From a virus: a stretch of DNA of 64,000 nt. Shown here piece after piece: positions 16,108 to 38,752 of the stretch. The DNA lies in the IMG/VR virus record IMGVR_UViG_3300037069_000769, positions 1 to 64,000 of that record, one strand, 5' to 3'. The number at the start of each line of letters is the position of its first letter. Position 1 is the stretch's first letter. Under the pieces are notes generated by a model. That model searched no databases, had not been told where the DNA came from, and saw only the letters and a program-made list of their open reading frames with translations. The position numbers were made by a program, and so were the translations under genes.

Positions 16108-16178
16108 TTACCGTGCAAACGTTTGCACGGTAATTTTTTGTTGATGCCCTTGACAAGTTTCTGAGATACTGCTATGAT
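16108..16178 (+). promoter_or_regulatory. 26-bp perfect palindrome (extended motif copy) followed by a sigma70-type promoter
   Basis: TTACCGTGCAAACGTTTGCACGGTAA at 16108-16133. TTGACA(16150)-17-TATGAT. Confidence 0.75.
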
Positions 16179-16205
16179 TAGGGTGTCTCTTACGAAAGGG
16201 GAATC

Positions 16206-16472
16206 ATGCCAATGCCTCAATATGGATCGCCTAAAGGTGAGTTGAGTCCGGGGGAAATTCGTAATTTTGCGTGGAAGGCCGGAGCGGCTGTAGTCGCAGC
16301 TTTGTTCACCTTTACTGCTCAGTACCTTAGCGGGTTGCAGCTTGAGCAACCTTGGACTATTATTGTCCCACTCGTGTGCGGTGGGTTACTGGACATGGCT
16401 CGGCATCTTGGAACGGACACGACGCCTGCCAAACCCAAACAGGAGATTACCGATGAGAGTGTGGGCAAGTAG
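16206..16472 (+). CDS. Small membrane protein, holin-like
   Basis: Two hydrophobic segments and a charged C-terminus, 88 aa. Confidence 0.55.
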   Translation: MPMPQYGSPKGELSPGEIRNFAWKAGAAVVAALFTFTAQYLSGLQLEQPWTIIVPLVCGGLLDMARHLGTDTTPAKPKQEITDESVGK

Positions 16473-16809
16473 AGCCGGACTGGCGGCTGCACTGCTTGGT
16501 GTTGTTGCGTACATCGCCAGCTTTTGTGTGCCTATGGACACCGGCGGTGCATGGTACGCCCAAGTGTTCGGATTGATGCTTGGCGGTGTTGCCGTGTACG
16601 TCGGGTCCAATTTCCGCACGATTAAGCGGAAAGCGGGGTTGACGGTGGTCCCTGAGATTGAGCCGCTCCAGCAGCGAGATTTGGAGTGTTTTAACCATTT
16701 GACTGAGCGAATGGCTATGTCAGGAGACAAGGATGGGATCGAGGCGTGCAAACGTTTGCAAGATTGTCTGTTCAATCTGCACTACGGTCATTTGAAGCCT
16801 GAGGAGTGA
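16453..16809 (+). CDS. Membrane protein with two N-terminal TM helices
   Basis: AGLAAALLGVVAYIASF and VFGLMLGGVAVYVG. AGGAG SD upstream. Confidence 0.65.
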   Translation: MRVWASRAGLAAALLGVVAYIASFCVPMDTGGAWYAQVFGLMLGGVAVYVGSNFRTIKRKAGLTVVPEIEPLQQRDLECFNHLTERMAMSGDKDGIEACKRLQDCLFNLHYGHLKPEE

Positions 16810-17303
16810 TTATGAGATACATCCTTCTGGCATTGGCCGGGGCGATGTTGACTGGGTGCAGTTTGTTCCCTGTTGATATGTCGAAGACTCCGACCAAGCC
16901 CGGAAAAGGTAAGGTCGTTCAGGTCGATGTGCCCGATGAGACTTTCGGACTTGATACGAAGATTCCGAAGGTCATGCACAATCGTAAGAGTGCTTTGCAG
17001 CTTGCGGCTGTGTGCGATCAATACGCTCGGGCAATCGAATACGACGGGGAAAAGGATGAACCCCTGTTGAGAACTACGGACGATGTGGGCAGACGTTTCA
17101 AGGCTATGAATGATTATGCGTGGCATGGTCCCAACACCTTGGCCCCTCCTGACTTCAAGTCTTTAACGTCTAAGTTGATGAAGGATCAGCTCGACTCTGA
17201 CGGAACCAGCCCTGAGTTGACAAAAGAAAAACGTGCCTTAGCGGTCTCAGTGTTTGAGGCCATCGCTTACGGTCTTAAGCAGGTGCAAGACGATGGCGAC
17301 TGA
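16806..17303 (+). CDS. Lipoprotein
   Basis: Signal peptide with lipobox LTG-C. Confidence 0.75.
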   Translation: MIMRYILLALAGAMLTGCSLFPVDMSKTPTKPGKGKVVQVDVPDETFGLDTKIPKVMHNRKSALQLAAVCDQYARAIEYDGEKDEPLLRTTDDVGRRFKAMNDYAWHGPNTLAPPDFKSLTSKLMKDQLDSDGTSPELTKEKRALAVSVFEAIAYGLKQVQDDGD

Positions 17304-18246
17304 ATTCTTCGGATGGGAACCTAATCCGCAGGGTGTTGAGGATTATATCAATGATCCTCGTAACAAACATCCTGTGTTTATGGTGTCTGCTCACGCTCTT
17401 ATGCGAGATTATGAGCAGAAGGACACCATGCTTTACGAAAACCTGCTGTGGGCTGACCCCAACTACCAACGCGGTCGTCAGTTGATCGGCGATTGTGTGT
17501 CATGGGGATGCGAGCTTGGTTGCACTACTAACATGGCTAAAGCCTTACGAAAAATCGGTCGTAGGGATTTGTTCATTCCTGCGGCCACTGAGTCTATTTA
17601 TGGGGGTGCTCGTGTTGAGGCTCTCCGTAAGCAGTCCGGAGGTTGGAATGATGGTGCATATGGGGCAGCGGCTGCTACGTGGGTGAGGGAGTGGGGTATC
17701 GTTCAGCGTAAGGATTACAGTGCTCAAACTGGAAATCCTGAGCATGACCTGCGGCAGTACAGCGGGCAGCGGGCGAAGCAGTGGGGTAATTACGGATGCG
17801 GGGGAGCTAAGGATAAAGGCAAACTTGACGAGCTTGCCAAGGAATTCCCTGTAAAGACTACAAGCATTGTACACAGTTTCGACGAAATTGCGGCTGCTAT
17901 TGCTGGTGCTAAGGTTCCTGTAACCATTGCCAGTAACTACGGCACCGATATGCGTCGGGACAAGAACGGATTCTGCCGATGGAACGCCTCATGGGGGCAC
18001 CAAATGGTGCTTATTGCTGTGAGATTCGGAGCAAGGCCGGGAGCATTGTGTGCTCAATCTTGGGGACCGCAAGTAGCATCAGGCCCCAAGTATCCTGAAA
18101 CCATGCCTGACAATATCGCCGGGTTTACTTGGTGGATTCCCGCAGAGGATTGCGATCGAATTGCCAAGCAGGGCGACTCTCACGCCTTGGGAGACGTTGA
18201 GGGCTGGAAAATTGATCCCTTTGAGTGGGATGACGTTTGGGGGTAA
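17293..18246 (+). CDS. Papain-like (C1-type) cysteine peptidase
   Basis: QLIGDCVSWG (oxyanion Gln and catalytic Cys), WGHQMVLI (His), QSWG. Confidence 0.75.
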   Translation: MATEFFGWEPNPQGVEDYINDPRNKHPVFMVSAHALMRDYEQKDTMLYENLLWADPNYQRGRQLIGDCVSWGCELGCTTNMAKALRKIGRRDLFIPAATESIYGGARVEALRKQSGGWNDGAYGAAAATWVREWGIVQRKDYSAQTGNPEHDLRQYSGQRAKQWGNYGCGGAKDKGKLDELAKEFPVKTTSIVHSFDEIAAAIAGAKVPVTIASNYGTDMRRDKNGFCRWNASWGHQMVLIAVRFGARPGALCAQSWGPQVASGPKYPETMPDNIAGFTWWIPAEDCDRIAKQGDSHALGDVEGWKIDPFEWDDVWG

Positions 18247-18250
18247 ACAT

Positions 18251-19165
18251 ATGCGGAACTTTGTGTTCGTGCTGCTGTTGATCGTAGGATGCAACTATCA
18301 GACTACGAGTGCTGGATCACTTGTGGATTCTGCTGATGCAGTGGCCTACGTCGCCGTAGATTTTGCATTTATCGATCTGGATGCGTCACCTATTCCGAAG
18401 AAACCGGTTACTCCTGATTCTGGAGGACGAGGTGCGTACAAATCCCCAGCTAAGGCAGTGCAAACGTTTGCAAATCCTACTGCGGCGGATGACGATTGCC
18501 CAACTTGTCCTCCTGCAAAGAAAAAGCCGGTACGTCGAGCGTACTTTTATAGTGCGACATGGTGCGAACCGTGTATCCCCGTGCAGGTGGCTCTGAAGCG
18601 GATTGCTAAGGAGAAGGGGCTTAAGTTTGGGGAGTACAACGATAGGGCGTCGGATGACGTTGAGCATGTTGATATTGATCGAGATAAGATTAAGAAGAAA
18701 ATTCTCGATGTGCCAACCCTCATTATCTACGACGGATTGGAGGAGGTGTGGAGGGGGTCGGGTAAGTCCGATCTGACCTACGGTGCGATGAAGGCTGCAT
18801 TTGAGTTGCCCTCAGCGGTGAAGGATACGCCACCCAAGGTCTCCATGTTTAACAAGATGCAGGGAATCTACCAATCCCGCTGGTCTTGGCCCGGTAAGCA
18901 GTGGGCGGGAACGTGTACTTTGTCCTTGCAGAATTTGGAGTCCCATCTGCACGGATCAATTCACCACTTGAACACTGAGGGTATGACCTACGGTCAAATG
19001 CTCCAGTATCATGATAGCTGGCATAGTACGTACGGGCCGCGAAGTAGCCGCCCCGAGACGGCTGCGAGGGGAGCGGCTCAATCGTCTACTAGCAGCCGAC
19101 GTATTTTTTCGTTCCGGAGTGGCAACTGCCCCAACGGACGTTGCCCGACTCGAAGGAGAGCGTAA
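18251..19165 (+). CDS. Thioredoxin-domain lipoprotein
   Basis: Lipobox IVG-C, FYSATWCEPC, VPTLII cis-Pro motif, C-terminal CPNGRCP. Confidence 0.78.
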   Translation: MRNFVFVLLLIVGCNYQTTSAGSLVDSADAVAYVAVDFAFIDLDASPIPKKPVTPDSGGRGAYKSPAKAVQTFANPTAADDDCPTCPPAKKKPVRRAYFYSATWCEPCIPVQVALKRIAKEKGLKFGEYNDRASDDVEHVDIDRDKIKKKILDVPTLIIYDGLEEVWRGSGKSDLTYGAMKAAFELPSAVKDTPPKVSMFNKMQGIYQSRWSWPGKQWAGTCTLSLQNLESHLHGSIHHLNTEGMTYGQMLQYHDSWHSTYGPRSSRPETAARGAAQSSTSSRRIFSFRSGNCPNGRCPTRRRA

Positions 19166-19485
19166 TGCCTAGACCTGTTCAAGGCTTCAACCTTGGAAGT
19201 TGGTATGAAATCAAGAATATCCGTCCCAGTCTCGATATGGTTATCGAGTACTTAAAGGGCGGGAAGCAGTTGGCTCCGGGAGTAACGTTTGAGGCTCACA
19301 GTCAGCTTAACATGAGCGTCTCTCTTGACGGGGAAACGATCAATGTTACTTTTGAAGAACCTCACCCGCAAATCAAGACTCCCATCGGGCTGAAGCCTAA
19401 AATTCTCGGAGCCGTGATTACCAAGAACTCGGTGACCCTTAAGGTGACTCAGTTCCCTGACCCGACTCTCAAGGTGGTGTCATAA
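19165..19485 (+). CDS. Hypothetical protein
   Basis: TAATG coupling at both ends. Confidence 0.65.
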   Translation: MPRPVQGFNLGSWYEIKNIRPSLDMVIEYLKGGKQLAPGVTFEAHSQLNMSVSLDGETINVTFEEPHPQIKTPIGLKPKILGAVITKNSVTLKVTQFPDPTLKVVS

Positions 19486-19886
19486 TGCCCGAAGTTGGGA
19501 TGTATCCCCAGAGTGCTGCGGTAGGGGATGTGCAGGATTGGATCGTAGCTAATGGTAGGTATAAGGGGGCTAAAGCCGAGCATGCTCGCTCGATTTCGTC
19601 GATGGCCCACGAGTACATTGCTCAGAATGCGGGCGGGTACGATCCCAACTCTCGGGCTGATCGCAAAGCGTTTGCTAAAGATTTGAAGACGTACTTAAGG
19701 GCTAACTACCCACCTAAGCAGGGTGGTCCTAAGCCTGTTGGGTTTATCTTCGAGAGCGTCATTCTGATGGCGATAATCTCGTTTGTGGTGCAGAAAATTT
19801 GCGAATGGTTGTGGGAGAGGTACTGGCACAATGTCTCACAGATGAGGCAAGGTTATGGTATGAGCCCCCTGCAAAATTCGCAGTAA
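19485..19886 (+). CDS. Hypothetical protein with C-terminal hydrophobic helix
   Basis: VGFIFESVILMAIISFVVQKICEWLW. Confidence 0.65.
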   Translation: MPEVGMYPQSAAVGDVQDWIVANGRYKGAKAEHARSISSMAHEYIAQNAGGYDPNSRADRKAFAKDLKTYLRANYPPKQGGPKPVGFIFESVILMAIISFVVQKICEWLWERYWHNVSQMRQGYGMSPLQNSQ

Positions 19887-19893
19887 ATCTCTA

Positions 19894-19922
19894 TTGACAT
19901 TCTTTCGACGTTTTGATATAAT
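19894..19922 (+). promoter_or_regulatory. Consensus sigma70-type promoter
   Basis: TTGACA-17-TATAAT with TG extension. Confidence 0.88.
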
Positions 19923-19942
19923 AAAAAGAAAGGTCGAAAACG

Positions 19943-20167
19943 ATGTCAAACGAGCTTGCAGTTCCCCGATTTTTTGGAGGGCATGAGGCAACGGAGCAGG
20001 ATGTCGATCTTCTCATGTATCTTTTATTCTTGACCTTGAGTGATCCGGGTCGGCATGAGGTTATGAGAGTGGTGGACGATCTCGGAGACCTTGGTAGACC
20101 TCCTGTGGAAAAAATGCGGGCGATCATCGCAGTTGCGAACGATCTCCCATTTGTCGGGGAATTATGA
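19943..20167 (+). CDS. Hypothetical protein
   Basis: Directly after the promoter. AAAGG SD upstream. Confidence 0.55.
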   Translation: MSNELAVPRFFGGHEATEQDVDLLMYLLFLTLSDPGRHEVMRVVDDLGDLGRPPVEKMRAIIAVANDLPFVGEL

Positions 20168-20319
20168 GTTTAGGCATGGTATTTGCACTATAATCGTACG
20201 GTGCAAACGTTTGCAAAACCTGTAGCTGTAGCTTACTGTGAACAATTCGCTCACTAATTCAGGCGGAGTCTTACCCCAACGTGGGGCAGGGCTCTGCCTT
20301 TCACAGTTTAAGGGCTGCT

Positions 20320-20925
20320 ATGTTTTGTCTTCCAGACAAGGAAATGGTCGTTTTCGATTTGGAGACGACCGATCACCAAGTAGCGGACGCAGCGGGAGTG
20401 GTTCCCGATATTGTTGAGGTTGGGGCTCTGCATATTGACAGACACTTTGAAATTTTGGGGAAGTTCGAGACTCTGGTATGCCCTAGTAACTTGGACTCCT
20501 TTACAGAGTTCTCCGAGGAACTGACCGGAATCCGGCGGAAGGATTTGGAGACTGCCCCCTCGTGGTCTGACGTATGCAGCAAGTTTACCAAATTTACGAG
20601 AGGTATGGGTCTTAAGCTCTGTTCGTGGGGAATAGGCAAAGACATTGCGACACTTGAGTCGGCTTACAAGCGAAGGAGAATTCACTACCCCCACAATTAC
20701 GTCACCATTGATGCTTTGTCTATCATGTATGGCTACTGCATGCAGACTGGCGTCAACGTAGGAGGATGGGGTCTGCGAGCAGCCTGTAGCAGATTTAACG
20801 TCCAGCGTAAGGTTAAGCATAGGGCATTGCCTGACGCATTGGCGGTGGTGCATCTGTTTAAGGCTCTTGCGGACTTGTGTGACGAGGATGATACGCAGAC
20901 GGATTACAAAATCCATTGCGTATAG
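20320..20925 (+). CDS. DEDDh 3'-5' exonuclease (DnaQ/RNase T-like)
   Basis: VFDLETT, LTGI, HRALPDA. Confidence 0.9.
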   Translation: MFCLPDKEMVVFDLETTDHQVADAAGVVPDIVEVGALHIDRHFEILGKFETLVCPSNLDSFTEFSEELTGIRRKDLETAPSWSDVCSKFTKFTRGMGLKLCSWGIGKDIATLESAYKRRRIHYPHNYVTIDALSIMYGYCMQTGVNVGGWGLRAACSRFNVQRKVKHRALPDALAVVHLFKALADLCDEDDTQTDYKIHCV

Positions 20926-20975
20926 AGACGAAGGGCAATAGCACCTGCCCGCTTCCCCTAAGCAAAGGTCACAGG

Positions 20976-21455
20976 ATGTATCGGGACGAAGTACCCAACT
21001 CGGTGCGGAGACTGCCGAAAGAGGAGCGTATACGCTACTACGAGCGGCAAGTTTCTCGTGTTTTGCCCGCTATGACTTTCATTGAGTGGCTGCATACAGG
21101 CTACACTCCGGAAGAGATGCGGGAAAAGCTGGTTGAAATCCGGGCGGAAATGCGAGAGGTCGAAGCTCGGATCGCCGTGCTAACCTCCTCTGACATGCAG
21201 GATTTGAAGAGTGATTTGGAAACTCACGTTTCCGAGATTCGTCAGATCATCAAATGCCGCACGATGATTTTAATCGGCAAGCCTGACTGCTCTGGCACCA
21301 ATTACCCGAATAACGTGCAAGAACTTACGAACTTGCTGAATCGTCGGGTGGCTGAGGCTCGGGCCGTCGAGGATAGGATCACTACTGTGTGTGCGGCGTT
21401 GCGGATCGATCCTAAACCGCACTTGATGCTGCACAAGGTCATGGTTCGGAGATAG
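20976..21455 (+). CDS. Hypothetical coiled-coil protein
   Basis: ORF in operon context. Confidence 0.6.
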   Translation: MYRDEVPNSVRRLPKEERIRYYERQVSRVLPAMTFIEWLHTGYTPEEMREKLVEIRAEMREVEARIAVLTSSDMQDLKSDLETHVSEIRQIIKCRTMILIGKPDCSGTNYPNNVQELTNLLNRRVAEARAVEDRITTVCAALRIDPKPHLMLHKVMVRR

Positions 21456-21456
21456 C

Positions 21457-21924
21457 ATGTTTGGATGGCTTTTCCCTAAGCGAAGCGTATCTGTTCAGAT
21501 TGGGTTTGGTGAGGCGTGTGATCGTCTTACTATTTTGCAGTTGAAGATCGATCACGCTACCAGTGACGTTCGGAAACTGCTTACGCGAGAGTTTGCGTTG
21601 ATCCATGCTCAGTTGTACCACGCTGGATTTTTTAGCGTGCCTTACGTGCAAACGTTTGCACTTGAGCTAGCTCAAATCAATCGAGAGCTTTGGTATACTG
21701 AGAATCAGATACGCGAGTTAGGTGGGGACGGAGCCTACGATCCCGAGCATGCAAAACATCTTCTTTGGTGCGAGGCCGCTCGTCGGGTTTACACTAAAAA
21801 CGGCGAGCGTGCCTCGTGTAAGAGGAGCATTGATAACGTTATGCAGTCAAAGGTCATGGAGGTCAAACTTTACGGGAGCAGTAATGACAGAAGTGGACAC
21901 TCGGGTGAGAAATCTCCTAGCTAG
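21457..21924 (+). CDS. DUF6165-like protein
   Basis: GEACDRLTILQLK...INRELWYTENQIR...ARRVYTKNGERA..KR.I pattern, recalled from the DUF6165 family. Confidence 0.65.
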   Translation: MFGWLFPKRSVSVQIGFGEACDRLTILQLKIDHATSDVRKLLTREFALIHAQLYHAGFFSVPYVQTFALELAQINRELWYTENQIRELGGDGAYDPEHAKHLLWCEAARRVYTKNGERASCKRSIDNVMQSKVMEVKLYGSSNDRSGHSGEKSPS

Positions 21925-22225
21925 TAAGCCTGAAGTTGGAGATGTTCTCACCTCAAAGGATGGGGAAAGCGTACCCGTCACTATCGATGTTCGTCCAGAT
22001 TCAGGTAAAGGTGTGACTGAAGTCTGGTTCGTGAATGCCTGTGTTGATCCCGAAGGTACTGGCTGGTATTTATCATCCGTGTCTCGGGGTTTGAAGATTT
22101 TGATTTCTCTCACATCACAAGATGTGCTTCGGGAGAAGTTTGGGCAAAACCTCATCACCGTTGTTTCTCTGAAAGTCGTGCGTAAGACGCCCAAGGGCAC
22201 GGCATTGATTGCGGAGTTAGCATGA
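21884..22225 (+). CDS. Hypothetical protein
   Basis: GGAG SD upstream of ATG at 21884. Confidence 0.6.
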   Translation: MTEVDTRVRNLLASKPEVGDVLTSKDGESVPVTIDVRPDSGKGVTEVWFVNACVDPEGTGWYLSSVSRGLKILISLTSQDVLREKFGQNLITVVSLKVVRKTPKGTALIAELA

Positions 22226-22647
22226 ACATTCAAATGTACGGCCTGCGGGAGCTTCCCAAGGAAGTTCGTACCAGCTTCACCTTGCCGGGCAATCCGTATT
22301 GTCTGACTAACCGGGATACCCTGAAGTACCTCTCTGACCTTGGTATCTTCTTCTACCGGGATGAGCTTAACGGAACTGCCGTTTTGATTCCCACCCCCGA
22401 AGGTGAGAGCATTCACCAGCGAAATGACTTTTCGGCGTTCAAGTTTGCGTGTATCGTTTCTGAGCCTGATAGGGATTGTAATCATCAGGTGCCGATGTCT
22501 GTAGCTCGGTGGCCTGCGACCTCTGAGGATCGTAGGCAAGCTGTGGCTGAGTATGAGGCTCGTCACGGTGACGACCGTGTGTGGCTGGAGTGGAATAAAC
22601 CTGTCCAAGTTAAGGAGCTGGATACCTCGCGAGTTCAACTCCTGTAG
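22222..22647 (+). CDS. Hypothetical protein
   Basis: ATGA overlap with the previous gene. Confidence 0.65.
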   Translation: MNIQMYGLRELPKEVRTSFTLPGNPYCLTNRDTLKYLSDLGIFFYRDELNGTAVLIPTPEGESIHQRNDFSAFKFACIVSEPDRDCNHQVPMSVARWPATSEDRRQAVAEYEARHGDDRVWLEWNKPVQVKELDTSRVQLL

Positions 22648-22658
22648 GGTGACTTGAG

Positions 22659-23207
22659 TTGAGTCGAGATGGCCTGAGTACGATGAGAGAACCCGATCAA
22701 GAATCTCTTGTGTACCTTAAGGGGTTTGCACCCTTTGAGGTCCATATTACCCAAAACCCTCATGAACCCTCTCACGAGGAACAAAGACTTGGGGGATTTC
22801 GATGCGAGTTGTGCGGTGCCATAGTAACGCTGATTGCCGTATGCAAGACGCAGCGGCTACCGGGTAAAGAGTTTTATTGTTGCTTGGGACTCTGTGCTGA
22901 AAGATTGCTCGGGGCATCACAGTATGTGAAGGTGTGCGGGCAGTCTGTCGATCTTTCAACAACGGATAAGAGCCTTCTCAGCGAGCTATCTCCTGAGGAG
23001 GCTCTTGCGTTAGTAGGCTCTAAGGAAGCCGCCCATGTTGCTCGTTTGGCACAAGGGTTTGAAAACTCTCGAATTTCCTTGACTTCTCCGGGAATCGTAG
23101 GTATACTAACACAATACCGACGATGCGGAATTTTAAGTCGGGGTCAGTTTCTTACGTTGTGGCAATACGTGTCAGCTTGTGGAAAGGAATTGAAGTGTCG
23201 AAGTTAA
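22659..23207 (+). CDS. Hypothetical protein with Cys motifs (possible Zn finger)
   Basis: CELCG...CLGLCAE. Confidence 0.55.
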   Translation: MSRDGLSTMREPDQESLVYLKGFAPFEVHITQNPHEPSHEEQRLGGFRCELCGAIVTLIAVCKTQRLPGKEFYCCLGLCAERLLGASQYVKVCGQSVDLSTTDKSLLSELSPEEALALVGSKEAAHVARLAQGFENSRISLTSPGIVGILTQYRRCGILSRGQFLTLWQYVSACGKELKCRS

Positions 23208-23677
23208 AAGATATTCCGTCAAACCCGGAAGACCTGAAAGCTTACTACAAAAAGCTCAAGGATAAGGAGCTTCGGCTGGAGGGCGACCTCGCAATTAACG
23301 ATGATCCCGACTTGGAGGATGCCATTATGGGCATCATCCTTGCACTGCATGATGTGAAGGAGATCGATAGCAAGATTCGGGTAGTGGAGCGGCCCAGTGC
23401 GGATGTTGAGAGTCGGATCGTTGCTCTCAAGGGTCAAGTTGCTCTGTACGAATCCAGACTTGAGGCTGTGAAGGCCACCCTTAAGGAGTTGGAAAGCGGT
23501 GGCGGTAAATTCCATCGGATGAGTGGGGATTACGTCACTGCTCTCAAGAACCTGCGGGATCAGGTGCTGAAATGGAAGGACCGCTTCGAGGCTCAGGGAG
23601 TAAATCTACTTGAGCTGATTCCCACTCTGTCGGAGTTCGCGGCAAAATTCGACAGTTTGCCGGAGGAAACCGCGTAA
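23195..23677 (+). CDS. Hypothetical coiled-coil protein
   Basis: AAGGA SD before GTG at 23195. Confidence 0.62.
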   Translation: MSKLKDIPSNPEDLKAYYKKLKDKELRLEGDLAINDDPDLEDAIMGIILALHDVKEIDSKIRVVERPSADVESRIVALKGQVALYESRLEAVKATLKELESGGGKFHRMSGDYVTALKNLRDQVLKWKDRFEAQGVNLLELIPTLSEFAAKFDSLPEETA

Positions 23678-23684
23678 AATCCTC

Positions 23685-23713
23685 TTGACTTACTCGCCAA
23701 TTTGAGGTATAAT
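23685..23713 (+). promoter_or_regulatory. sigma70-type promoter
   Basis: TTGACT-17-TATAAT. Confidence 0.82.
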
Positions 23714-23759
23714 ACAACCTACAAATCGGCCACCAACCCAACCACGAGGAGACGGGTAA

Positions 23760-24029
23760 ATGGCGGGAGTATTAGAACGTCGTCGGATGCTCAAGGAGAT
23801 TGTTGACGACTTGAAGGACGGATGTGCCGTTTTCGAGTATTCAGTGCCTGAATTGGCAGCCCTTGCTGGAGTCAGTCCCACGACAGTGTATCGCCTCTTT
23901 GAGGGGACCACAAAATACCCACGATTTGAGACGCTGGTGAAGATCGCCGATGTGCTGAACTATGCGATCTATTTCCAGAAGAAGACTGTGCCCCTTTCTC
24001 GGGCAAAGAAGACGGCTAAGATCGGGTAG
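23760..24029 (+). CDS. XRE-family HTH DNA-binding protein
   Basis: SVPELAALAGVSPTTVYRLFEGTTKYPRFETLVKIADVL. Confidence 0.88.
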   Translation: MAGVLERRRMLKEIVDDLKDGCAVFEYSVPELAALAGVSPTTVYRLFEGTTKYPRFETLVKIADVLNYAIYFQKKTVPLSRAKKTAKIG

Positions 24030-24129
24030 CGTCCGCCGATCCTTTGAACCTGATCCCGAACCTCTGGAGTAGTCATGCCGTTTCCGTAGCTACGAGGAGC
24101 CAAGTGTACTATGGTAAGTATAATAGTTT

Positions 24130-24570
24130 GAAATCCAAATCACGTCCCTACGGTTTGGTGACAGAAGGTGAAGTGCGAGGCTCATGAGAGTGAGCCGGGA
24201 GTGGTTGTGTGAGATTGTCATCACAATGACCCGAGTGAGTATTTAAGTGCTGTAGGCCAACTATGAGGTTAATCCCAGATATGATCTGTATATTGACCTA
24301 ACCTTGCAGCTACTCAAGTGGCTCGGCGGGATGTCAGGGGTGAACTGACCGCACTTTGACTGAAGTCGTATCCGGAATCCCGGAGAGTAGTGACCAAAGC
24401 ACGAGAGAACGAGAAACTGCTTTGAATTTTACCTTTTGGAGGTGTGTGATGAAGTAGTTCGCTAAAACCGTCGGTGAGGCAGTCTTCGCAAAGGTCAGCA
24501 CGCTAGTCTGTTATAAGGAGGTGCCACTATGAGCATTTCGCAGAGTTTGCAAAGCGTGCTGACCTTTTTA
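24130..24570 (+). ncRNA. Putative large structured non-coding RNA
   Basis: ORF-free ~570-nt gap containing at least 10 nested helices found by eye, including a GNRA-capped hairpin and long-range closing stems. Confidence 0.65.
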
Positions 24571-24601
24571 CTTTTGCAAACGTTTGCACGAAAGGATACT
24601 C

Positions 24602-25093
24602 ATGTCGGAAGTACCCGACACCTCAGCACCTGAATCCGTTGCTCCCTTTGAGTCTGGTCCCGTATCGAGTGACGGGAGCTTGCTGCCCGAGACTGCGGGG
24701 ACGCCGGCAGAGCCCGCCAAACCTTCGGCACCGCGAGTGTCCGAGGTGGGAGTTCGGGAGCATATCGCACGCCTGACCGGCGATTTGCCCGCCAGAATTA
24801 AGCATCTGGAAGAGATGGCTCGAAGTGAGAAGCACGCCATCGATTCCAAGTGCAAGGCTCAGGCTCATTCGGAGAAGGCCGAAGTTGACCGCCGACTTCG
24901 CGAGGATAAGAAGACTCTCCGCAAGGCCATGAATACGGCCCTCAGTCAGTGGAATGCGGTGCTGGTCAAGTTGGAGAAAGACCCGCACCCCCTGTTTGAG
25001 GAGGAAGATTGGGAAACACCTCCCGGAGGAGCGTCCGAGACGCCGGACCTGAGAGACCCGGCAAAAACCGAACCTGAGGTCTCAGCTCCCTGA
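24602..25093 (+). CDS. Hypothetical protein (Pro-rich disordered ends, helical core)
   Basis: AAGGA SD upstream of ATG at 24602. Confidence 0.65.
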   Translation: MSEVPDTSAPESVAPFESGPVSSDGSLLPETAGTPAEPAKPSAPRVSEVGVREHIARLTGDLPARIKHLEEMARSEKHAIDSKCKAQAHSEKAEVDRRLREDKKTLRKAMNTALSQWNAVLVKLEKDPHPLFEEEDWETPPGGASETPDLRDPAKTEPEVSAP

Positions 25094-25120
25094 TTTGTCA
25101 CATCAAGCATCCTACCCCGT

Positions 25121-25157
25121 GGAGGGCATCGATTCGGTCGGTGCCCTCCTTCTTTTT
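25121..25157 (+). terminator. Intrinsic terminator
   Basis: GGAGGGCATCGA-loop-TCGGTGCCCTCC followed by TTCTTTTT. Confidence 0.8.
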
Positions 25158-25167
25158 GTAATTCACC

Positions 25168-25196
25168 TTGACACCGAAAGTCGGGTGAGGTATACT
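25168..25196 (+). promoter_or_regulatory. sigma70-type promoter upstream of the csrA-like gene
   Basis: TTGACA-17-TATACT. Confidence 0.82.
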
Positions 25197-25235
25197 TAAA
25201 TTCGTTCGGTTACTATTTTTTGAAAGGAGTCTGCA

Positions 25236-25547
25236 ATGTTGGTGCTCTCTCGGAAGAAGGATGAACGGGTTGCTGTTACTCTTGAGTCTATGATTCGCAA
25301 GCTTGCTAAGGAGGTGTACGACAGAAGTAAGCGGGGCGAAAGTCTCGCCGACATTCAGGACGACCTGATCGCTAACGGTGAGCGTCTCAGTATCGTTTGC
25401 GTTGAACTTCGCGGAGATAAGGTCCGCTTGGGCTTCGAGGCCAGTCGGGACTGGACTATTCACCGGGATGAGGTTCAAGCTGCGGTGGATAAGGAGAAGA
25501 CGGATGTCGAGCATAGCTCTGCTAACCTTTGCGAAGAATCACGCTGA
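25236..25547 (+). CDS. csrA: CsrA/RsmA-family translational regulator with internal insertion
   Basis: MLVLSRKKDE... and ...VELRGDKVRLGFEASRDWTIHRDEV match the CsrA signature. About 30 extra residues lie between them. Confidence 0.85.
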   Translation: MLVLSRKKDERVAVTLESMIRKLAKEVYDRSKRGESLADIQDDLIANGERLSIVCVELRGDKVRLGFEASRDWTIHRDEVQAAVDKEKTDVEHSSANLCEESR

Positions 25548-26160
25548 GCATGGGTCAAACTACGTCGATATGGTGAGACCCTGCTTAGACAGCCGTAGAT
25601 CGTATGCTGCAAAGCACGGGTTTACTCTGTATGATGATGTTCTCCCTTACTACGATCCGACGAGACCTGCGTCATGGTCGAAGCTTCGGATGATTGCTGC
25701 GGTTCTGCACAAGCACGAGTGGGTATTTTGGTCTGATGCAGACGTGCTGGTCACTGAATCCGGAGTTCGGATTGAGGACATTTTGTCGTGGTTTGACACT
25801 TCCAAGGACTTCATCATCGCGGAGGATTTGGGCGGAGTTCCTGTAAATTGCGGGAACTTTTTTGTGAGGAATAGTCCGTGGGCTCACGAATTCCTCAAAC
25901 GGTGGTGGGATCAGACCCACATGATAAACTCCGAATGGTGGGAGCAATCGGCCCTGATCGAGTTATTGAAGACTCCTGAAGTTCGGGAACACTTTCAGAT
26001 TACTCAGGATCGAAGAATGTTTAACGCTTACCCCAAGGAGCGATTTAACACACCTTCTGATTTAGCTTGGCAGCCGGGTGACTTCCAGTTGCACATTTCA
26101 GGGGTACGGGGCCAAGAGTTCGTGAACATTCTTAATCTGTATCTTCCGCAGTGTAGGTGA
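25504..26160 (+). CDS. GT34 (MNN10/GMA12-like) glycosyltransferase
   Basis: SWSKL, WVFWSDADVL (DxD), NCGNFFVRNS, WEQSAL. Confidence 0.82.
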   Translation: MSSIALLTFAKNHAEHGSNYVDMVRPCLDSRRSYAAKHGFTLYDDVLPYYDPTRPASWSKLRMIAAVLHKHEWVFWSDADVLVTESGVRIEDILSWFDTSKDFIIAEDLGGVPVNCGNFFVRNSPWAHEFLKRWWDQTHMINSEWWEQSALIELLKTPEVREHFQITQDRRMFNAYPKERFNTPSDLAWQPGDFQLHISGVRGQEFVNILNLYLPQCR

Positions 26161-26163
26161 GTA

Positions 26164-26784
26164 ATGTACTGGCGGGAATTGCTTAAGTACGCGGAGCATG
26201 ATCTCAAGTGGGCTATGGATGAGCTTCATATTGAGTGGCTCCGAGAAATTCTTGGTTTCGGATTTAAGAGAACGTTGGAGATTGGTAGCTATAACGGCTC
26301 CAGTTTGACAGCGTTTCTTGATGCGAAGAGTTGTGGAGATGTTACGGAGGTCCATGTCTGCGATGTTCATGTACGGCAGCCGTTACTCCACGTCATAGCT
26401 GCGTCTGAGATTGAAGTAATCCTGCATCAGCGAAGAAGTGTGGACCTTCTCACTGAGGATTCAAATTTTGAGTTCGTGCTTGTGGATGGGGATCATTCGA
26501 TTGAGAATGTTCGTAAGGAGATGACTCTCCTACTGGCGTCTGGGGTCGAGAGCATCTTTGTCCACGATACTACGGCTCGGGTAGCTAAGTATCCTCATGT
26601 GGAGGGTAGTGAGATAGCTAAGACTATGCTCATGGGCTCTCCGGCTTACTACTGTCTGGAGGACTCAATTCCTCGACCGGGGATGGCGACAGACAGAGGA
26701 GCACTTTTTGCAACTCAATATGCTGATATTTTTGAGTATGCTCGGAGTGCGTATTACGAGATTTTTTGCAAACGTTTGCACTGA
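26164..26784 (+). CDS. Class I SAM methyltransferase (Methyltransf_24-like)
   Basis: LEIGSYNGSS, FVLVDGDHS, VHD. Confidence 0.82.
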   Translation: MYWRELLKYAEHDLKWAMDELHIEWLREILGFGFKRTLEIGSYNGSSLTAFLDAKSCGDVTEVHVCDVHVRQPLLHVIAASEIEVILHQRRSVDLLTEDSNFEFVLVDGDHSIENVRKEMTLLLASGVESIFVHDTTARVAKYPHVEGSEIAKTMLMGSPAYYCLEDSIPRPGMATDRGALFATQYADIFEYARSAYYEIFCKRLH

Positions 26785-26793
26785 AAGGCAGAC

Positions 26794-27384
26794 ATGGGAA
26801 AACAAGTATTGGCGATTCCGACGGAGCTTCTGTTCAGCCGCATCGAACGTCGGGATGCGTTTACCGGATTCGACGAGTACCCCCTGACGTGTAGTCAGCT
26901 CTTTGCTGGTGCTGAGTTCATTGATCGTGAGCAGGCCGAGCATGACCCCAGCTATAAGCAGATTATCCCGTATGGGGTGATTCGGGGACTTCGAGGCATT
27001 CTCTGCTATCAGCGAGGGGACGGTTCTGACGAGTCCCGACTGGTGGCAAAGCATTCGTTCGGATTCGGGGGCCACGTTGAGCCGTCGGACGGCAAGAATC
27101 TGCTAATGTGCATGATTCGGGAGTTGAGTGAGGAGCTGCTGTTCGGAGATATTCCGTTCTGTATCTCACCGGCTGGAATTGTCAATGAGGATTTCACCGA
27201 AGTCGGCACCGTGCATGTTGGGATGGTGTACTCCATCGTGGTACATGAGGCCGTACTGGTGAGCGGGGAAACGGACATTGCCAATCTCCGCTGGGAGGCT
27301 GCGGAGCAGATGGAAGAAAAGAAAGAACTCGGCCTCTGGGAAGGTTGGAGCAAGTTGCTCATGGATGGAGGTTTGCATGTCTGA
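26794..27384 (+). CDS. NUDIX-family phosphoesterase
   Basis: AEHDPSYKQIIPY, GFGGHVE, RELSEEL, VHVG. Confidence 0.85.
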   Translation: MGKQVLAIPTELLFSRIERRDAFTGFDEYPLTCSQLFAGAEFIDREQAEHDPSYKQIIPYGVIRGLRGILCYQRGDGSDESRLVAKHSFGFGGHVEPSDGKNLLMCMIRELSEELLFGDIPFCISPAGIVNEDFTEVGTVHVGMVYSIVVHEAVLVSGETDIANLRWEAAEQMEEKKELGLWEGWSKLLMDGGLHV

Positions 27385-27784
27385 AGAACAACTCAAACCC
27401 GAAAAGTCCCTTGACGTGCTTGCGAAAGCCGCTAAGGAGTTGCACGATGTTCTCGCCAAGACTGTGGGAACTTTGAAGGTTTCCGCTGTCGAGACTCCGG
27501 AAGGGATGATGCCCCACCCCTCGTGGGTGCTGGATCGTCTTATCAAGACCTCGGGTCAAACTGTTGACCTTCTCCATAAGATTCACTACGTCGAGGCCGT
27601 AGTTATGGGGATTCTCTCCAGACTGGACACTGAAATTGCTGATTCGGTGTATGAGCATGCGGCTGTAACTTTGGGTAAGCAGTCGGCCCAGTACCTTGAG
27701 GTTGCGGCAAGACGGGAAGCCGAGGCTCAAAGTAAGCTCATTCTTCCCGTAGGTGCGGAAACTTTAGCTGTTCCTAAGAGGTAG
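27377..27784 (+). CDS. Hypothetical protein
   Basis: GGAGG SD upstream of ATG at 27377. Confidence 0.65.
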   Translation: MSEEQLKPEKSLDVLAKAAKELHDVLAKTVGTLKVSAVETPEGMMPHPSWVLDRLIKTSGQTVDLLHKIHYVEAVVMGILSRLDTEIADSVYEHAAVTLGKQSAQYLEVAARREAEAQSKLILPVGAETLAVPKR

Positions 27785-27786
27785 CC

Positions 27787-28329
27787 ATGCGATCACTGCT
27801 GGTTGGAGATTTCACGGAGACTGAGGTTCTCGAAGCTAAGCGTGGAGACTGCGAGGTATTCGCAGCCAACCGAGTAGGGAATCTTGGGTACACAGATGGG
27901 GCCTTCGAGTGTGGGTTAGAGGACTGTACCGATGTGCTGCTGTTGATGCAGAAGCTTAACGACAGTGGGGTGATATTCGACGTAGTGCATTTCAGATGCA
28001 TGAACTCTCGACCCGCTCCCGATACCGCGAATGATCTGGTTGACTTTCTATCGGCAGTGGCTCAGAACTACATAATTCCTCTGACGCTACCAAAGCTTCT
28101 GAGAAGTGCTGGCCGGCTCAGTACCTCTGCTTATTTTGTGTATTGGCAGTATCTGAGTCGAAATGCGTGGGCCTCACGAGTTCAGAGTGACATACTTTGT
28201 GGGTGTGAGTCTGCCAAGCCCCTATGTCCCGGTCTTACTTTTGTGGGCGTAAAGGCTGGTGGCCCTCCTATGCGGGATGTTCACTCTCGACTGATGCGAG
28301 GGAACGTACCTTCGGGAATTATTCTCTAA
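27787..28329 (+). CDS. Hypothetical protein
   Basis: GAGG SD, operon context. Confidence 0.55.
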   Translation: MRSLLVGDFTETEVLEAKRGDCEVFAANRVGNLGYTDGAFECGLEDCTDVLLLMQKLNDSGVIFDVVHFRCMNSRPAPDTANDLVDFLSAVAQNYIIPLTLPKLLRSAGRLSTSAYFVYWQYLSRNAWASRVQSDILCGCESAKPLCPGLTFVGVKAGGPPMRDVHSRLMRGNVPSGIIL

Positions 28330-28336
28330 TTCCCTC

Positions 28337-28365
28337 TTGACACGCTGTCACTCTTTTGAGATAAT
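28337..28365 (+). promoter_or_regulatory. sigma70-type promoter
   Basis: TTGACA-17-GATAAT. Confidence 0.72.
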
Positions 28366-29463: not shown

Positions 29464-29674
29464 ATCCCGGACCCAAAGACCTACACCCGAGAAGTCTACC
29501 ATTTGACCGAGGTTGTTGCCTCAGCTAACTCCCCTGTGAGGGGTTTCCCGAGCGGCTTTCTGTAGCTCTAGGGTCCGGGATGGGGGTTGGGTGCTAGGCT
29601 TAGGTTAAAACAGTTACCGCCATTTCTGTCTCCCCTAGGCTGGGCTTAAGAGGGTTCGACTCCTTCTTCCCCCA
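29464..29674 (+). ncRNA. Two-domain structured RNA with a tRNA-like T-arm/3' end
   Basis: 11-bp stem 29464-74/29571-81 enclosing branched hairpins, followed by GGGGG...GAGGG-TTCGACT-CCTTC-TTCCCCCA. Confidence 0.55.
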
Positions 29675-29701
29675 CTTTTGCAAACGTTTGCAAGGAACAC
29701 T

Positions 29702-35351: not shown

Positions 35352-35990
35352 ATGACTGAAGATGTGATTAAACCACTTCACGAACTGTTGGAGTCGGTAA
35401 GCCGTAGGGACATTGACGAGACACCTGCGGAAAAGAAGTTGCGGGAGCTTAAAAGTCTCCCTGATGACGATAAGTACGCTAAGGTGTTTGAGTTAAAGAT
35501 GCGAGGGGTGCCGGCAAGCTCCATATCCCGCATCTTTGATGTCGATACTAGCACCGTTCATAGATGGCTTCGACAGTACGCTGAGAGTTACCGTACGCGG
35601 ATCGAGCAGGAACCTGCTGCCAACATCATCGCCGAGTCTATGCAATTCCTTAACGCAATTGAGGAGTTGTGTTTATATGAGGTCGATCAAATTACTACTG
35701 AGGAAACCCGCACTGACCCTAAGACGGGTGAGGTACTACGGGTAACTTCGGTTCAAAGTAATGGGGTGAAGGTAAAGTACATCCAATCTGTCCTTAAGGC
35801 TCGTCAGATGATGTTGGACCTACTGGTTCAAACTGGCGTACTGCCGAGGGAGAGTTCTGATATGTACAAACGCATGGAAGCTGAGAAGAAGATCGATGAG
35901 ACTGATTTGAGTAAGGTTGCTGATGCCACCTCTCGTGAGGAATTGGAACGGCGACTTGTTGAAGCTTTAAGTAAGGATATGAAGCTGTAA
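35352..35990 (+). CDS. Probable terminase small subunit (HTH)
   Basis: HTH (ISRIFDVDTSTVHRWL) immediately upstream of TerL with TAATG coupling. Confidence 0.65.
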   Translation: MTEDVIKPLHELLESVSRRDIDETPAEKKLRELKSLPDDDKYAKVFELKMRGVPASSISRIFDVDTSTVHRWLRQYAESYRTRIEQEPAANIIAESMQFLNAIEELCLYEVDQITTEETRTDPKTGEVLRVTSVQSNGVKVKYIQSVLKARQMMLDLLVQTGVLPRESSDMYKRMEAEKKIDETDLSKVADATSREELERRLVEALSKDMKL

Positions 35991-38752
35991 TGTTTGAGCA
36001 CCTTCCTGCTACATCAGCCGCTGGGGAAATGCTGTCTGGACTAACAGATCAGCAAGTCAAACGACTCACTAAGTTGTTAGACATTCGACGAGCCCGCATC
36101 ACGTTTGCTACTGAGCATCATGTGAATACTCGCGGGGATCGAATGGACTTTGCTCATTATCCTCATATCAAGGCTCTGTACAATAGTTTGGCCTCGACTA
36201 TCGTATTGCAGGGCTCAGTTCAAAGTTTCAAGGCCCAACCTCTAACCGCCAAGGTTCATACGCCTAGCGGCTGGAAACTGATGGGCGACTTGAGGGTGGG
36301 CGACACCGTAAGCACTCCTGACGGTGCAAACGCTTGCATTACTGCTGTTCAGCCTCAAGGAACTGTGAGAATCTACAAGCTCAAGTTCTCTGACGGTCGA
36401 GTAGTGGAGGCTTGTGGGGATCACCTCTGGAAAGTGCGAGGTTCGCGTAGAATCTTCAAAGCTTGTCGGGGCTTGTGTTACGATGCACCTAAAGCTTCGG
36501 AGGTTGTTGACACTAATACTATTGCTAAGAGAATGTGTTCGGGCGAACGTTTCAGCGTCCCGTTGACTTTGCCGGTGGAGAAGCCTGCAACGAGTGTTAC
36601 GCTTGATCCCTATTTTGTAGGATTGATGCTTGGTGACGGAGAACTCGGCAAGACTAACTTGCGATTCATTACTACCGAATCTGAGTTGGTGACGGCTGTA
36701 AATGCAAGTGTATATCGTTGGGGGCTGAAGCTTCAGCAGTACAAAGATACGGCCAATCATCACTTTATTCGAGGTGAGAATTCGATCTCTAATCTGGGGG
36801 CTCAGTTGCTCCGAGATCAGTTTGAGAAGTTAAGGTTGCTTGGGACCGATAGCTTTTCAAAGTTTATTCCCGCCTCGTATAAGGAAGGGTCTATTGAGCA
36901 GAGACTCGCATTACTGCAAGGTTTGATGGATACTGACGGCGTTACGGGTTCAACTGAGATTCGCATTTCGTCGAAGCAGTTGGCTCTTGACATTCAGGAG
37001 ATTGTGTGGTCATTGGGAGGAGTTGCGTCGATTACTCCGCGTGAGACGTACTACACGAAAGAGGGTGGTAAGGTTGCGGGAGCGACTTCGTTTATCGTAG
37101 CAATCTCCCACCCACACCCCAGCATGCTTTACCGTCTGACGAGTAAGCGGGCTGCTGTGTCCGACGACCACCGTCGAACTGACACAATGGGGCCGACGAT
37201 TGAGGAGATTATCTGTGTAGGTGAAAAGCCTGCTCAATGTATTGTTCTCGATCATCCCGAGCATTTGTATCTGACAGATGGGTACACGGTTACCCATAAT
37301 AGTGAATGGGCAGTAATCGACCATTTTGCGGCAGCCTTTACCGGGCTGTCGGTGTTTTTTGTTGTGCCTAAGTATGAGGCCCGCACAACGTACGTTCAGA
37401 ACCGAATCAACAAGTGCGTGCAGAGTGTTCCCGAGTACAAGCGGATCATTGGGGCAGGTTTCTTTGACTCGGTGCAGATGAAGTCGTTCGGCAAAGGTTC
37501 CGTTAAATACGTCGGGTCGAACGTACTGGCTGACTTCAAAGAATACCCTGCTGATATGATCGTGGTGGAGGAGGTCGATCAGTGCGATAAGGATAATGTT
37601 GCTTACGCCAATGATCGACTGATGGCCTCACCCTATCAGTTTAAGCGTTACTTGGGTAACCCTACGCACAAAGGCAAGGGTATTAACGCTTACTTTCAGG
37701 AGTCAGATCAGCGGGAGTGGTATGTCCCGTGCATGATCTGCGGAGAGTACTCAGAGCTTGATTGGTTTAACGTGGTGGTCGAGGCGATCTTTGACAAGGA
37801 AGGTCATATCGTTGATTATCGACTTCGGGATAAGGAGTGGTCAGTCGGGTGTCGCCGAGATATTCACTTGATGTGCCCAAAATGTAGTGGGCAGTTGGAA
37901 CGTGCAAGTGACCGGGGCGAATGGAGACCTAAGAATCAGGGCCACCCTATTGAGGGTTACCATATCTCACAGCTTTGCAGCCCCATCAACTCTGTCGCAT
38001 CCATGTGGCAGGAGTTCCGAGCGTCGCTGACAGACCCAACGCGACTCCAGAAGTTCTACAACTCATATCTGGGATTGCCCTTTGAGGCTGCGGGCAATAA
38101 GATTACGTCGGAGCTTCTTGCGGCTTGCTCTGACCTCGACTACAAGTTTGTAATTCAGCCTGATTGTGCCTTTATTTCGGGAGACGGTGACGAAGGTCCA
38201 TGCAGCATGGGTGTGGACGTTGGGGGCAACTTGGATGTGCGTATCTCTCGAATTGAGAAGAACAAACGTCGTGCTGTGTATATGGGTAAAGTCAAGCACA
38301 TCGACGAAGTGTACAGTCTAATTGAGAGGTACAACGTCGAGAAGTGTGTTATCGACTCTGGGCCTGAGACGGCTTTGGTTCAGGACTTTCAAGATAACGC
38401 TACCTGCGATGTGTGGGCCTGTCGGTACGGCAGTGAGGGCTCCGATAAACGTCGTCGGTATGATACCTCTGACAAGGTGATTAGCATTGACAGAACTGAG
38501 GCGTTGGATCGCTCGTTCAGTCAAATCAGGCAGAAGAAGAACATTCTGCCCGTGAATTTCACTGAGATTTTGGACGGGCAGTACGTGTCCGAGATGTGTG
38601 ATCCTGTTCGCTCGATGGTCGAGGATGATCGGGGAAATAGTAAGTTCGAGTGGACTAAGTGTAAAGATCACCAGCGACATTGTGACACCTATGACATGCT
38701 GGCGGCTCAGTTGATTATGGAAGCAACGTTAGACGACATTTCCATTGGTTGA
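35990..38752 (+). CDS. Terminase large subunit (lambda gpA-like) containing an intein
   Basis: Walker A-like QSFK/SE, Walker B VVEEVD, GNPT, Zn motifs (CxxC), nuclease MGVDVG. Confidence 0.9.
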   Translation: MFEHLPATSAAGEMLSGLTDQQVKRLTKLLDIRRARITFATEHHVNTRGDRMDFAHYPHIKALYNSLASTIVLQGSVQSFKAQPLTAKVHTPSGWKLMGDLRVGDTVSTPDGANACITAVQPQGTVRIYKLKFSDGRVVEACGDHLWKVRGSRRIFKACRGLCYDAPKASEVVDTNTIAKRMCSGERFSVPLTLPVEKPATSVTLDPYFVGLMLGDGELGKTNLRFITTESELVTAVNASVYRWGLKLQQYKDTANHHFIRGENSISNLGAQLLRDQFEKLRLLGTDSFSKFIPASYKEGSIEQRLALLQGLMDTDGVTGSTEIRISSKQLALDIQEIVWSLGGVASITPRETYYTKEGGKVAGATSFIVAISHPHPSMLYRLTSKRAAVSDDHRRTDTMGPTIEEIICVGEKPAQCIVLDHPEHLYLTDGYTVTHNSEWAVIDHFAAAFTGLSVFFVVPKYEARTTYVQNRINKCVQSVPEYKRIIGAGFFDSVQMKSFGKGSVKYVGSNVLADFKEYPADMIVVEEVDQCDKDNVAYANDRLMASPYQFKRYLGNPTHKGKGINAYFQESDQREWYVPCMICGEYSELDWFNVVVEAIFDKEGHIVDYRLRDKEWSVGCRRDIHLMCPKCSGQLERASDRGEWRPKNQGHPIEGYHISQLCSPINSVASMWQEFRASLTDPTRLQKFYNSYLGLPFEAAGNKITSELLAACSDLDYKFVIQPDCAFISGDGDEGPCSMGVDVGGNLDVRISRIEKNKRRAVYMGKVKHIDEVYSLIERYNVEKCVIDSGPETALVQDFQDNATCDVWACRYGSEGSDKRRRYDTSDKVISIDRTEALDRSFSQIRQKKNILPVNFTEILDGQYVSEMCDPVRSMVEDDRGNSKFEWTKCKDHQRHCDTYDMLAAQLIMEATLDDISIG
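36233..37300 (+). mobile_element. Intein (356 aa) with LAGLIDADG homing endonuclease, class-3 signature
   Basis: Begins AQPL and ends VTHN|S. LAGLIDADG motifs GLMLGDG and LQGLMDTDG. Trp (DHLW), Cys (AQCI) and Thr (VTHN) triad. Confidence 0.9.

Follow-up and report, generated by a model that had tools for sequence, protein, structure and literature searches.

Does the gene-free interval between two orphan genes of an uncultured soil siphophage specify a large structured RNA, and would such an RNA belong to a described class? The original prediction had placed at 24130-24570 a large, multi-branched non-coding RNA upstream of the csrA region, possibly of the GOLLD or ROOL type or of a new class. 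The window, i.e. the whole stretch of DNA that was analysed, covers the initial 64 kb of an IMG/VR virus contig of 102,321 bp that comes from soil metagenomes and is 80% complete according to CheckV. It contains portal and tape-measure protein genes, and all long ORFs of the phage contig lie on the + strand; this coding strand is G+U-rich and folds well throughout. The large terminase subunit (TerL; 35990-38752, + strand, 920 aa) carries a fused N-terminal helicase/primase-like domain. Annotations as helicase-loader, primase and 'DarB-like' fall on its N-terminal ~440 residues, and no other part of the protein matches the jumbo phages of Vibrio, Klebsiella and Aeromonas (~30% identity). The nearest isolated phages reach only ~30% identity, across part of TerL, while the closest metagenomic relatives, none of them cultured, have a TerL that is 59-66% identical over the best-aligned segment.

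The contig has only four + strand gaps of at least 250 nt without a 60-aa ORF, and the gene-free interval 24030-24583 (554 nt) is one of them. The longest + strand ORF inside it is 47 aa, and each + frame contains 7-14 stop codons between 24030 and 24489, which leads us to reject a recent pseudogene. No frame across 24000-24500 scores positive in codon-usage log-odds derived from the long ORFs of the phage itself, whereas both flanking genes do so in the correct frame. Searches of Pfam and PHROGs with the short ORFs of the gap gave no match. The gap is truly non-coding. A replication origin with iterons was also rejected, as no direct-repeat family was found.

The genes and signals that surround the gap are the following.

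23685-23713, + strand: sigma-70-like promoter TTGACT-17-TATAAT, 11/12 consensus, which likely feeds the structured region
23760-24029, + strand: Xre/Cro-type HTH gene, 89 aa (Pfam HTH_3, 2.1e-08; PHROG transcriptional regulator)
24119-24124, + strand: TATAAT hexamer, a weak internal promoter candidate with a best -35 of only 3/6, uncalled by the promoter scan
24490-24567, + strand: long hairpin of 78 nt, about -37 kcal/mol, in which a perfect basal stem of 15 bp encloses a structured interior of 48 nt
24575-24588, no strand assigned: palindrome copy TGCAAACGTTTGCA, directly 5' of the next gene's SD
24602-25093, + strand: orphan ORF of 163 aa, coding score positive, with a canonical terminator at 25121-49
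25236-25547, + strand: CsrA-family gene (Pfam PF02599, 47 bits vs a cut-off of 27; residues 48-84 of 103)

The TATAAT at 24119-24 and the palindrome behind the hairpin, both pointed out by the original prediction, are present in the sequence. Since this TATAAT has no acceptable -35 and no terminator was found between the HTH stop codon (24029) and the hairpin at 24490, co-transcription from 23685-23713 is more likely than a separate gene. Stop codon and hairpin are 461 nt apart, more than 10 times the usual spacing in this phage, where the other terminator-like hairpins (16108, 25121, 30603 and 31858; n = 4) stand 8-41 nt past stop codons. The 15-bp stem (24490-504/24553-67) is, as claimed, perfect: its arms are 100% complementary, they pair with a probability of 0.97, and the U-run UUACUUUU follows directly 3' of the stem. 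This inverted repeat is one of three such in 64 kb, and the hairpin is the sole clearly non-random element of the region. A G+C-rich stem followed by UUACUUUU is the anatomy of an intrinsic terminator, and the hairpin may be terminator-like or a processing site; the terminator scan missed it because its loop limit is 3-8 nt, against a structured loop of 48 nt. The promoter scan called nothing between the hairpin and the 163-aa ORF. As this ORF scores as coding but has no promoter, the hairpin must let some transcription through or be processed, which lends an attenuator some credit. More widely, near-consensus sigma-70 promoters on the + strand at 16150, 19894, 23079, 23685, 25168 and 28337 cut 16150-28365 into short operons, several of them behind hairpin terminators (16108, 25121).

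We folded 24100-24600 by minimum free energy (MFE) and partition function; the figures given below are mean pair probabilities.

24144-24475, + strand: structured core of 332 nt, with 24150-59/24461-71 as closing helix
24150-59/24461-71, + strand: outer closing helix, probability only ~0.4
24170-24357, + strand: five-way junction subdomain, most helices 0.92-0.99; z -3.69 against dinucleotide shuffles for the 196-nt domain 24166-24361
24170-77/24350-57, + strand: 8-bp helix closing the junction, 0.92
24179-96, + strand: GAGA-loop hairpin, 0.99
24204-27, + strand: hairpin, 0.95
24231-24329, + strand: long arm of the junction in the predicted fold
24249-56/24303-10, + strand: helix in the long arm, 0.75
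24266-73/24292-99, + strand: helix with an inner CAGAU/AUCUG, 0.97/0.94
24333-49, + strand: hairpin of 5 bp with the 7-nt loop GGGUGAA, 0.96
24371-84, + strand: hairpin of 5 bp with an AAUC loop, 0.97
24385-24414, + strand: purine-rich, mostly single-stranded segment with a weak 3-bp helix, 0.35
24415-24459, + strand: hairpin holding an SD-like GGAGG and a mini-ORF; helix 24430-44, 0.89
24449-24457, + strand: two-codon mini-ORF AUG AAG UAG, with the strong SD-like GGAGG before its AUG at optimal spacing (24438-24457)
24515-24633, + strand: region of a 34-codon ORF, AUG 24529, with a perfect SD at optimal spacing (SD and AUG, 24515-24531)

The junction thus consists of an 8-bp helix that encloses four arms, and the hairpins 24371-84 and 24415-59 come after it. 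Nearly all of the helices listed by the original prediction were recovered, mainly with probabilities of 0.75-0.99; two of them, GAGTA/TACTC and CAAAGCA/TGCTTTG (24395-424), lie outside the MFE fold and compete with it. The outer helix, originally drawn as 24150-61/24459-71, was found slightly shortened and, at ~0.4, is weaker. The hairpin 24333-49 was considered as a T-arm: it abuts the closing helix in the same manner, but its loop does not have the T-loop pattern and we rejected this identification. A multi-branched non-coding RNA candidate does emerge as had been proposed, being non-coding, with a branched predicted fold and a terminator-like hairpin at its end.

How far does the fold exceed chance? 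On the + strand, the MFE of the core is -113.6 kcal/mol (z -3.54 against dinucleotide shuffles) and beats 100/100 shuffles, whereas the - strand reaches -90.3 (z -2.73), in agreement with the earlier proposal of a + strand RNA. The same shuffle test was applied to 41 evenly spaced 332-nt + strand windows of the phage genome, which gave a mean z of -1.75 (sd 1.55), with 6/41 windows at or below -3.55. Thus, the core does fold better than its shuffles, but the advantage is only modest when set against the genome's own windows. When the MFE of 615 windows was regressed on base composition, the core had a residual z of -1.2 and ranked 71/615. Its positional entropy and ensemble diversity are among the best 10% of genome windows, and it is in the best 15% for the share of nucleotides paired at p>0.9. 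The core fold is somewhat better defined than average and no outlier, and its folding statistics lie in the upper range of ordinary coding windows in this phage genome. The ornate predicted fold alone is therefore no evidence, because a shuffle z of about -3.5 is common in the coding sequence of this G+U-rich genome.

Two other parts of the contig deserve mention here. Beyond the window, the contig stretch 70883-71380 holds the ORF-free gap 70911-71350, which has the second-strongest composition-adjusted fold of the 615 windows, with a residual z of -3.25, and judged in this way it surpasses 24144-24475 as a candidate structured RNA; Rfam gave no match at gathering score there. Near the start of the window, 1093-2401 (1.3 kb) has no + strand ORF of at least 60 aa and none of at least 100 aa on either strand; the palindrome occurs there at 999 and 2004, and 1192-1250 holds a 16-bp inverted repeat.

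The palindrome itself is dispersed: allowing at most 1 mismatch, TGCAAACGTTTGCA occurs 53 times in the 102-kb contig, and the palindrome 16-mer gives 67 strand-matches in the window vs 0.37 expected. Copies include 24575-24588, 26767-80, 29679-92 and 38756-69; in nearly all cases a start codon follows 10-25 nt downstream, with the SD just 3' of the copy, and copies are also found directly after tRNA-like sequences. From this placement, the palindrome looks like intercistronic punctuation, either a processing or stabilising hairpin or a site for a dimeric protein. A T-arm-like GGTTCGAnTCC occurs immediately 5' of palindrome copies at 29650-29692 in the window and at about 66990-67035 and 68966-69053 in the contig; among these three sites, a tRNA is called only at 68966-69037 (50 bits in Rfam; the ARAGORN call has an odd anticodon loop), and the other two are tRNA-like but uncalled.

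To place the element among known RNAs, we used Rfam 15 (4,227 models, including GOLLD, ROOL, OLE, tmRNA, RNase P, introns and riboswitches). cmscan gave no match at gathering score over the full 64-kb window, and at E<=10 in 23900-24800 it returned only a 12-bit chance fragment of a snoRNA inside the HTH gene. None of the families that the original prediction had named for this comparison (GOLLD, ROOL, OLE, tmRNA, RNase P, introns) was matched. Membership of GOLLD or ROOL finds no support in the element itself either, which is 330-450 nt long and does not stand beside a tRNA island. Known riboswitch and leader families were rejected on the same Rfam result, and no antiterminator helix competing with 24490-24567 is seen in the equilibrium fold. 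A tRNA or tmRNA was rejected since ARAGORN finds no gene in the window. We likewise rejected a retron or DRT ncRNA (no reverse transcriptase, PF00078, in the 102-kb contig), a bacterial Y RNA (no TROVE/Ro60 match, PF05731, in the contig) and an omega RNA or reRNA (the TnpB-type PF07282 gives only a sub-threshold match of 10.7 bits, 59 kb distant). The region is thus an unproven orphan candidate and not a GOLLD/ROOL-type RNA.

Homologues were sought at the levels of sequence, structure and neighbourhood. blastn of 24040-24620 against 50,697 phage records found no homologue; exact and degenerate patterns gave a single match in IMG/VR (L050), attributable to chance; two purine/pyrimidine-tolerant patterns found nothing in JGI metagenome contigs; and one pattern gave 10 matches in GTDB genome contigs, all chance according to R1, a covariance model built from the junction domain. 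Neither blastn nor R1 matched anything in five TerL-related phage contigs fetched whole, and no second copy was found in the rest of the phage's own contig. The flanking proteins (89-aa HTH and 163-aa ORF), used as baits in IMG/VR and in a collection of 5.8 billion proteins, retrieved only their own clusters, so that both are orphans; three contigs carry an identical flanking protein. In the related phages G001, G002 and G004, the syntenic interval, 3' of the homologue of a 184-aa coiled-coil protein, holds packed ORFs with no gap larger than ~230 nt. Because no homologue was found and the flanking proteins are orphans, the element and its neighbours appear to be specific to one phage. The lack of a homologue in the collections searched also means that there is no covariation support and no sign of selection on the structure. 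Sequencing runs with the stretch comprise three soil metagenomes, its probable source, and two with identical low-depth fragments; the source metagenomes reach a word depth of about 217x over the contig, no variant was seen in the stretch among these five, and the runs listed for it include no RNA run. An antisense target within the phage was rejected as well, since the best complement in the rest of its + strand (17/18 nt at 25520-37, E 0.14) is at chance level.

What, then, is the region? Our leading reading, to which we would nevertheless give somewhat less than an even chance, is a functional, lineage-specific structured phage RNA, either a domain of the 3' UTR or a 3' UTR-derived RNA. In its favour, the interval is non-coding and a rare gap, the terminator spacing is 461 nt, the fold beats its shuffles and does so better on the + strand, where all genes lie, the ensemble is in the best 10% for definition, and a 15-bp hairpin with a U-run ends a unit that a strong upstream promoter would feed with no terminator between. 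Against it stand a z that is ordinary for the genome (6/41; rank 71/615), the lack of any homologue, the tightly packed genes of G001, G002 and G004, the absence of an acceptable promoter of its own and a closing helix at ~0.4. Almost as likely, and plausible though short of an even chance, is a functionless spacer followed by a terminator: leftover DNA of a fast-turnover accessory region, such as an old decayed gene or a cassette junction, in which function would be confined to the terminator hairpin and the palindrome, and the fold would be typical of any G+U-rich 330-nt piece of this genome. Genome windows do fold nearly as well, orphan genes flank the interval on both sides, relatives lack it entirely, and no conservation was found in any collection searched. 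But phage genomes are compact, terminators elsewhere in this phage stand 8-41 nt after stops, the structure definition is in the top 10%, and any decay would be old given that no residual coding signal is left.

A third possibility, which we regard as distinctly unlikely, is a cis-acting intercistronic attenuator, such that the 163-aa ORF would be expressed only by read-through of 24490-24567, at a level set by the upstream structure or by a ribosome or protein bound to the SD-like AAGGAGGUG in its hairpin. The order of structured domain, terminator, SD and ORF would suit such a device, as would the lack of a promoter-like site between hairpin and ORF and the perfect SD and AUG (24515-24531) in the hairpin loop, which would let a ribosome occupy the 3' arm. 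However, no antiterminator pairing was found against a stem of probability 0.97, there is no match to a known riboswitch, T-box or leader model, codon usage scores negative for the 34-codon ORF, and SD+ATG pairs at non-gene sites number ~30 in the genome. It is very unlikely that the gap encodes very small proteins (47 aa at 24044, 33 aa at 24356, 34 aa at 24529): strong SDs do stand ahead of the AUGs at 24449 and 24529, but codon-usage scores are negative in all frames, no family matches, the AUG at 24449 opens an ORF of two codons, and the 34-codon ORF begins in the terminator loop and crosses the 3' arm and the palindrome. As for the csrA region of the original prediction, it is there: a genuine CsrA-family gene (25236-25547) lies 700 nt downstream, with its own consensus promoter at 25168-96. 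A CsrB/RsmZ-like sponge for this phage homologue could thus be imagined, and a few GGA motifs are found at loop edges (24374, 24438, 24517). Known CsrA sponges carry many GGA-loop hairpins, and GGA is not enriched here: there are 6 motifs in 427 nt, whereas the genome background is 9.0 +/- 3.2 and 87% of windows contain at least 6. We therefore rejected the sponge as highly improbable. Least credible of all, even taken jointly, is a divergent member of a described class (GOLLD, ROOL, OLE, raiA, tmRNA, RNase P, group I/II intron, retron/DRT ncRNA, Y RNA or omega RNA), for which there is only the general resemblance of a large branched phage RNA, set against the empty Rfam search at E<=10, the negative ARAGORN result, the absence of a split gene and of any reverse transcriptase, TROVE/Ro60 or TnpB-type gene, and a size unlike that of GOLLD.

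If the structured-RNA reading is correct, polymerase from the 23685 promoter would read through the HTH gene, meet no terminator and enter the gap, and the TATAAT at 24119 may contribute transcripts of its own. The RNA would then fold, on thermodynamic grounds, into a multi-branched domain of ~330 nt made of the five-way junction 24170-24357 and two hairpins, and the transcript would end or be cut at the hairpin 24490-24567 and its U-run. The product would be a long structured 3' UTR or a derived RNA of ~450 nt, whose role would be that of a stable domain at the 3' end or of a phage RNA acting in trans. The more specific proposal of a so-far single-member class of ncRNA, ~330-450 nt long, with a five-way junction, co-transcribed with the Cro-like gene, released at the long terminator or processing hairpin beside the dispersed palindrome and acting in trans during infection of the soil host, is tentative and on the unlikely side. 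Were the element real, the small group of large phage ncRNAs would gain an orphan structured member, from a lineage without any cultured relative (TerL matches of 59-66%, all metagenomic), and its position next to a Cro-like regulator and a phage CsrA would suggest that an accessory DNA-modification module is controlled at the RNA level. At present, the main use of the region is as a caution against relying on shuffle z-scores for ornate folds.

How does the candidate compare with known systems? ROOL has multiple conserved pseudoknots and forms a homo-oligomeric cage. With GOLLD and ROOL, the candidate shares that it is phage-encoded and non-coding, with a multi-branched predicted fold and no associated protein; unlike them, it leaves the Rfam models unmatched and has no conserved family, and so lacks the covariation by which those classes are defined. 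GOLLD RNAs are in many cases longer than 800 nt, and both GOLLD and ROOL are often found near tRNA islands (PMC12286853), whereas the structured part here measures 332 nt, or ~450 nt including the hairpin, and no tRNA island adjoins it (ARAGORN: none in the window, the only called tRNA being at contig 68966-69037). CsrB and RsmZ have in common with the locus the csrA-family gene nearby, and differ from it by their GGA motifs, which here are at or below background frequency. The resemblance to T-box, cobalamin and M-box leaders lies in the succession of a structured domain, a terminator hairpin, and an SD with a promoterless ORF. The candidate departs from these leaders in that it has neither an Rfam match nor a competing antiterminator helix, its terminator stem is very long (15 bp perfect, in a 78-nt hairpin) and it stands between two cistrons, not behind a promoter. 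Small RNAs that are derived from 3' UTRs or co-transcribed with genes are a general class in bacteria and phages. Although the candidate is far longer (~450 nt) than typical 3' UTR sRNAs and has no seed/target complementarity beyond chance within the phage, it shares with them its place 3' of a small regulator gene, a possible weak internal -10 element, the lack of a terminator in between and the use of the same intrinsic terminator.
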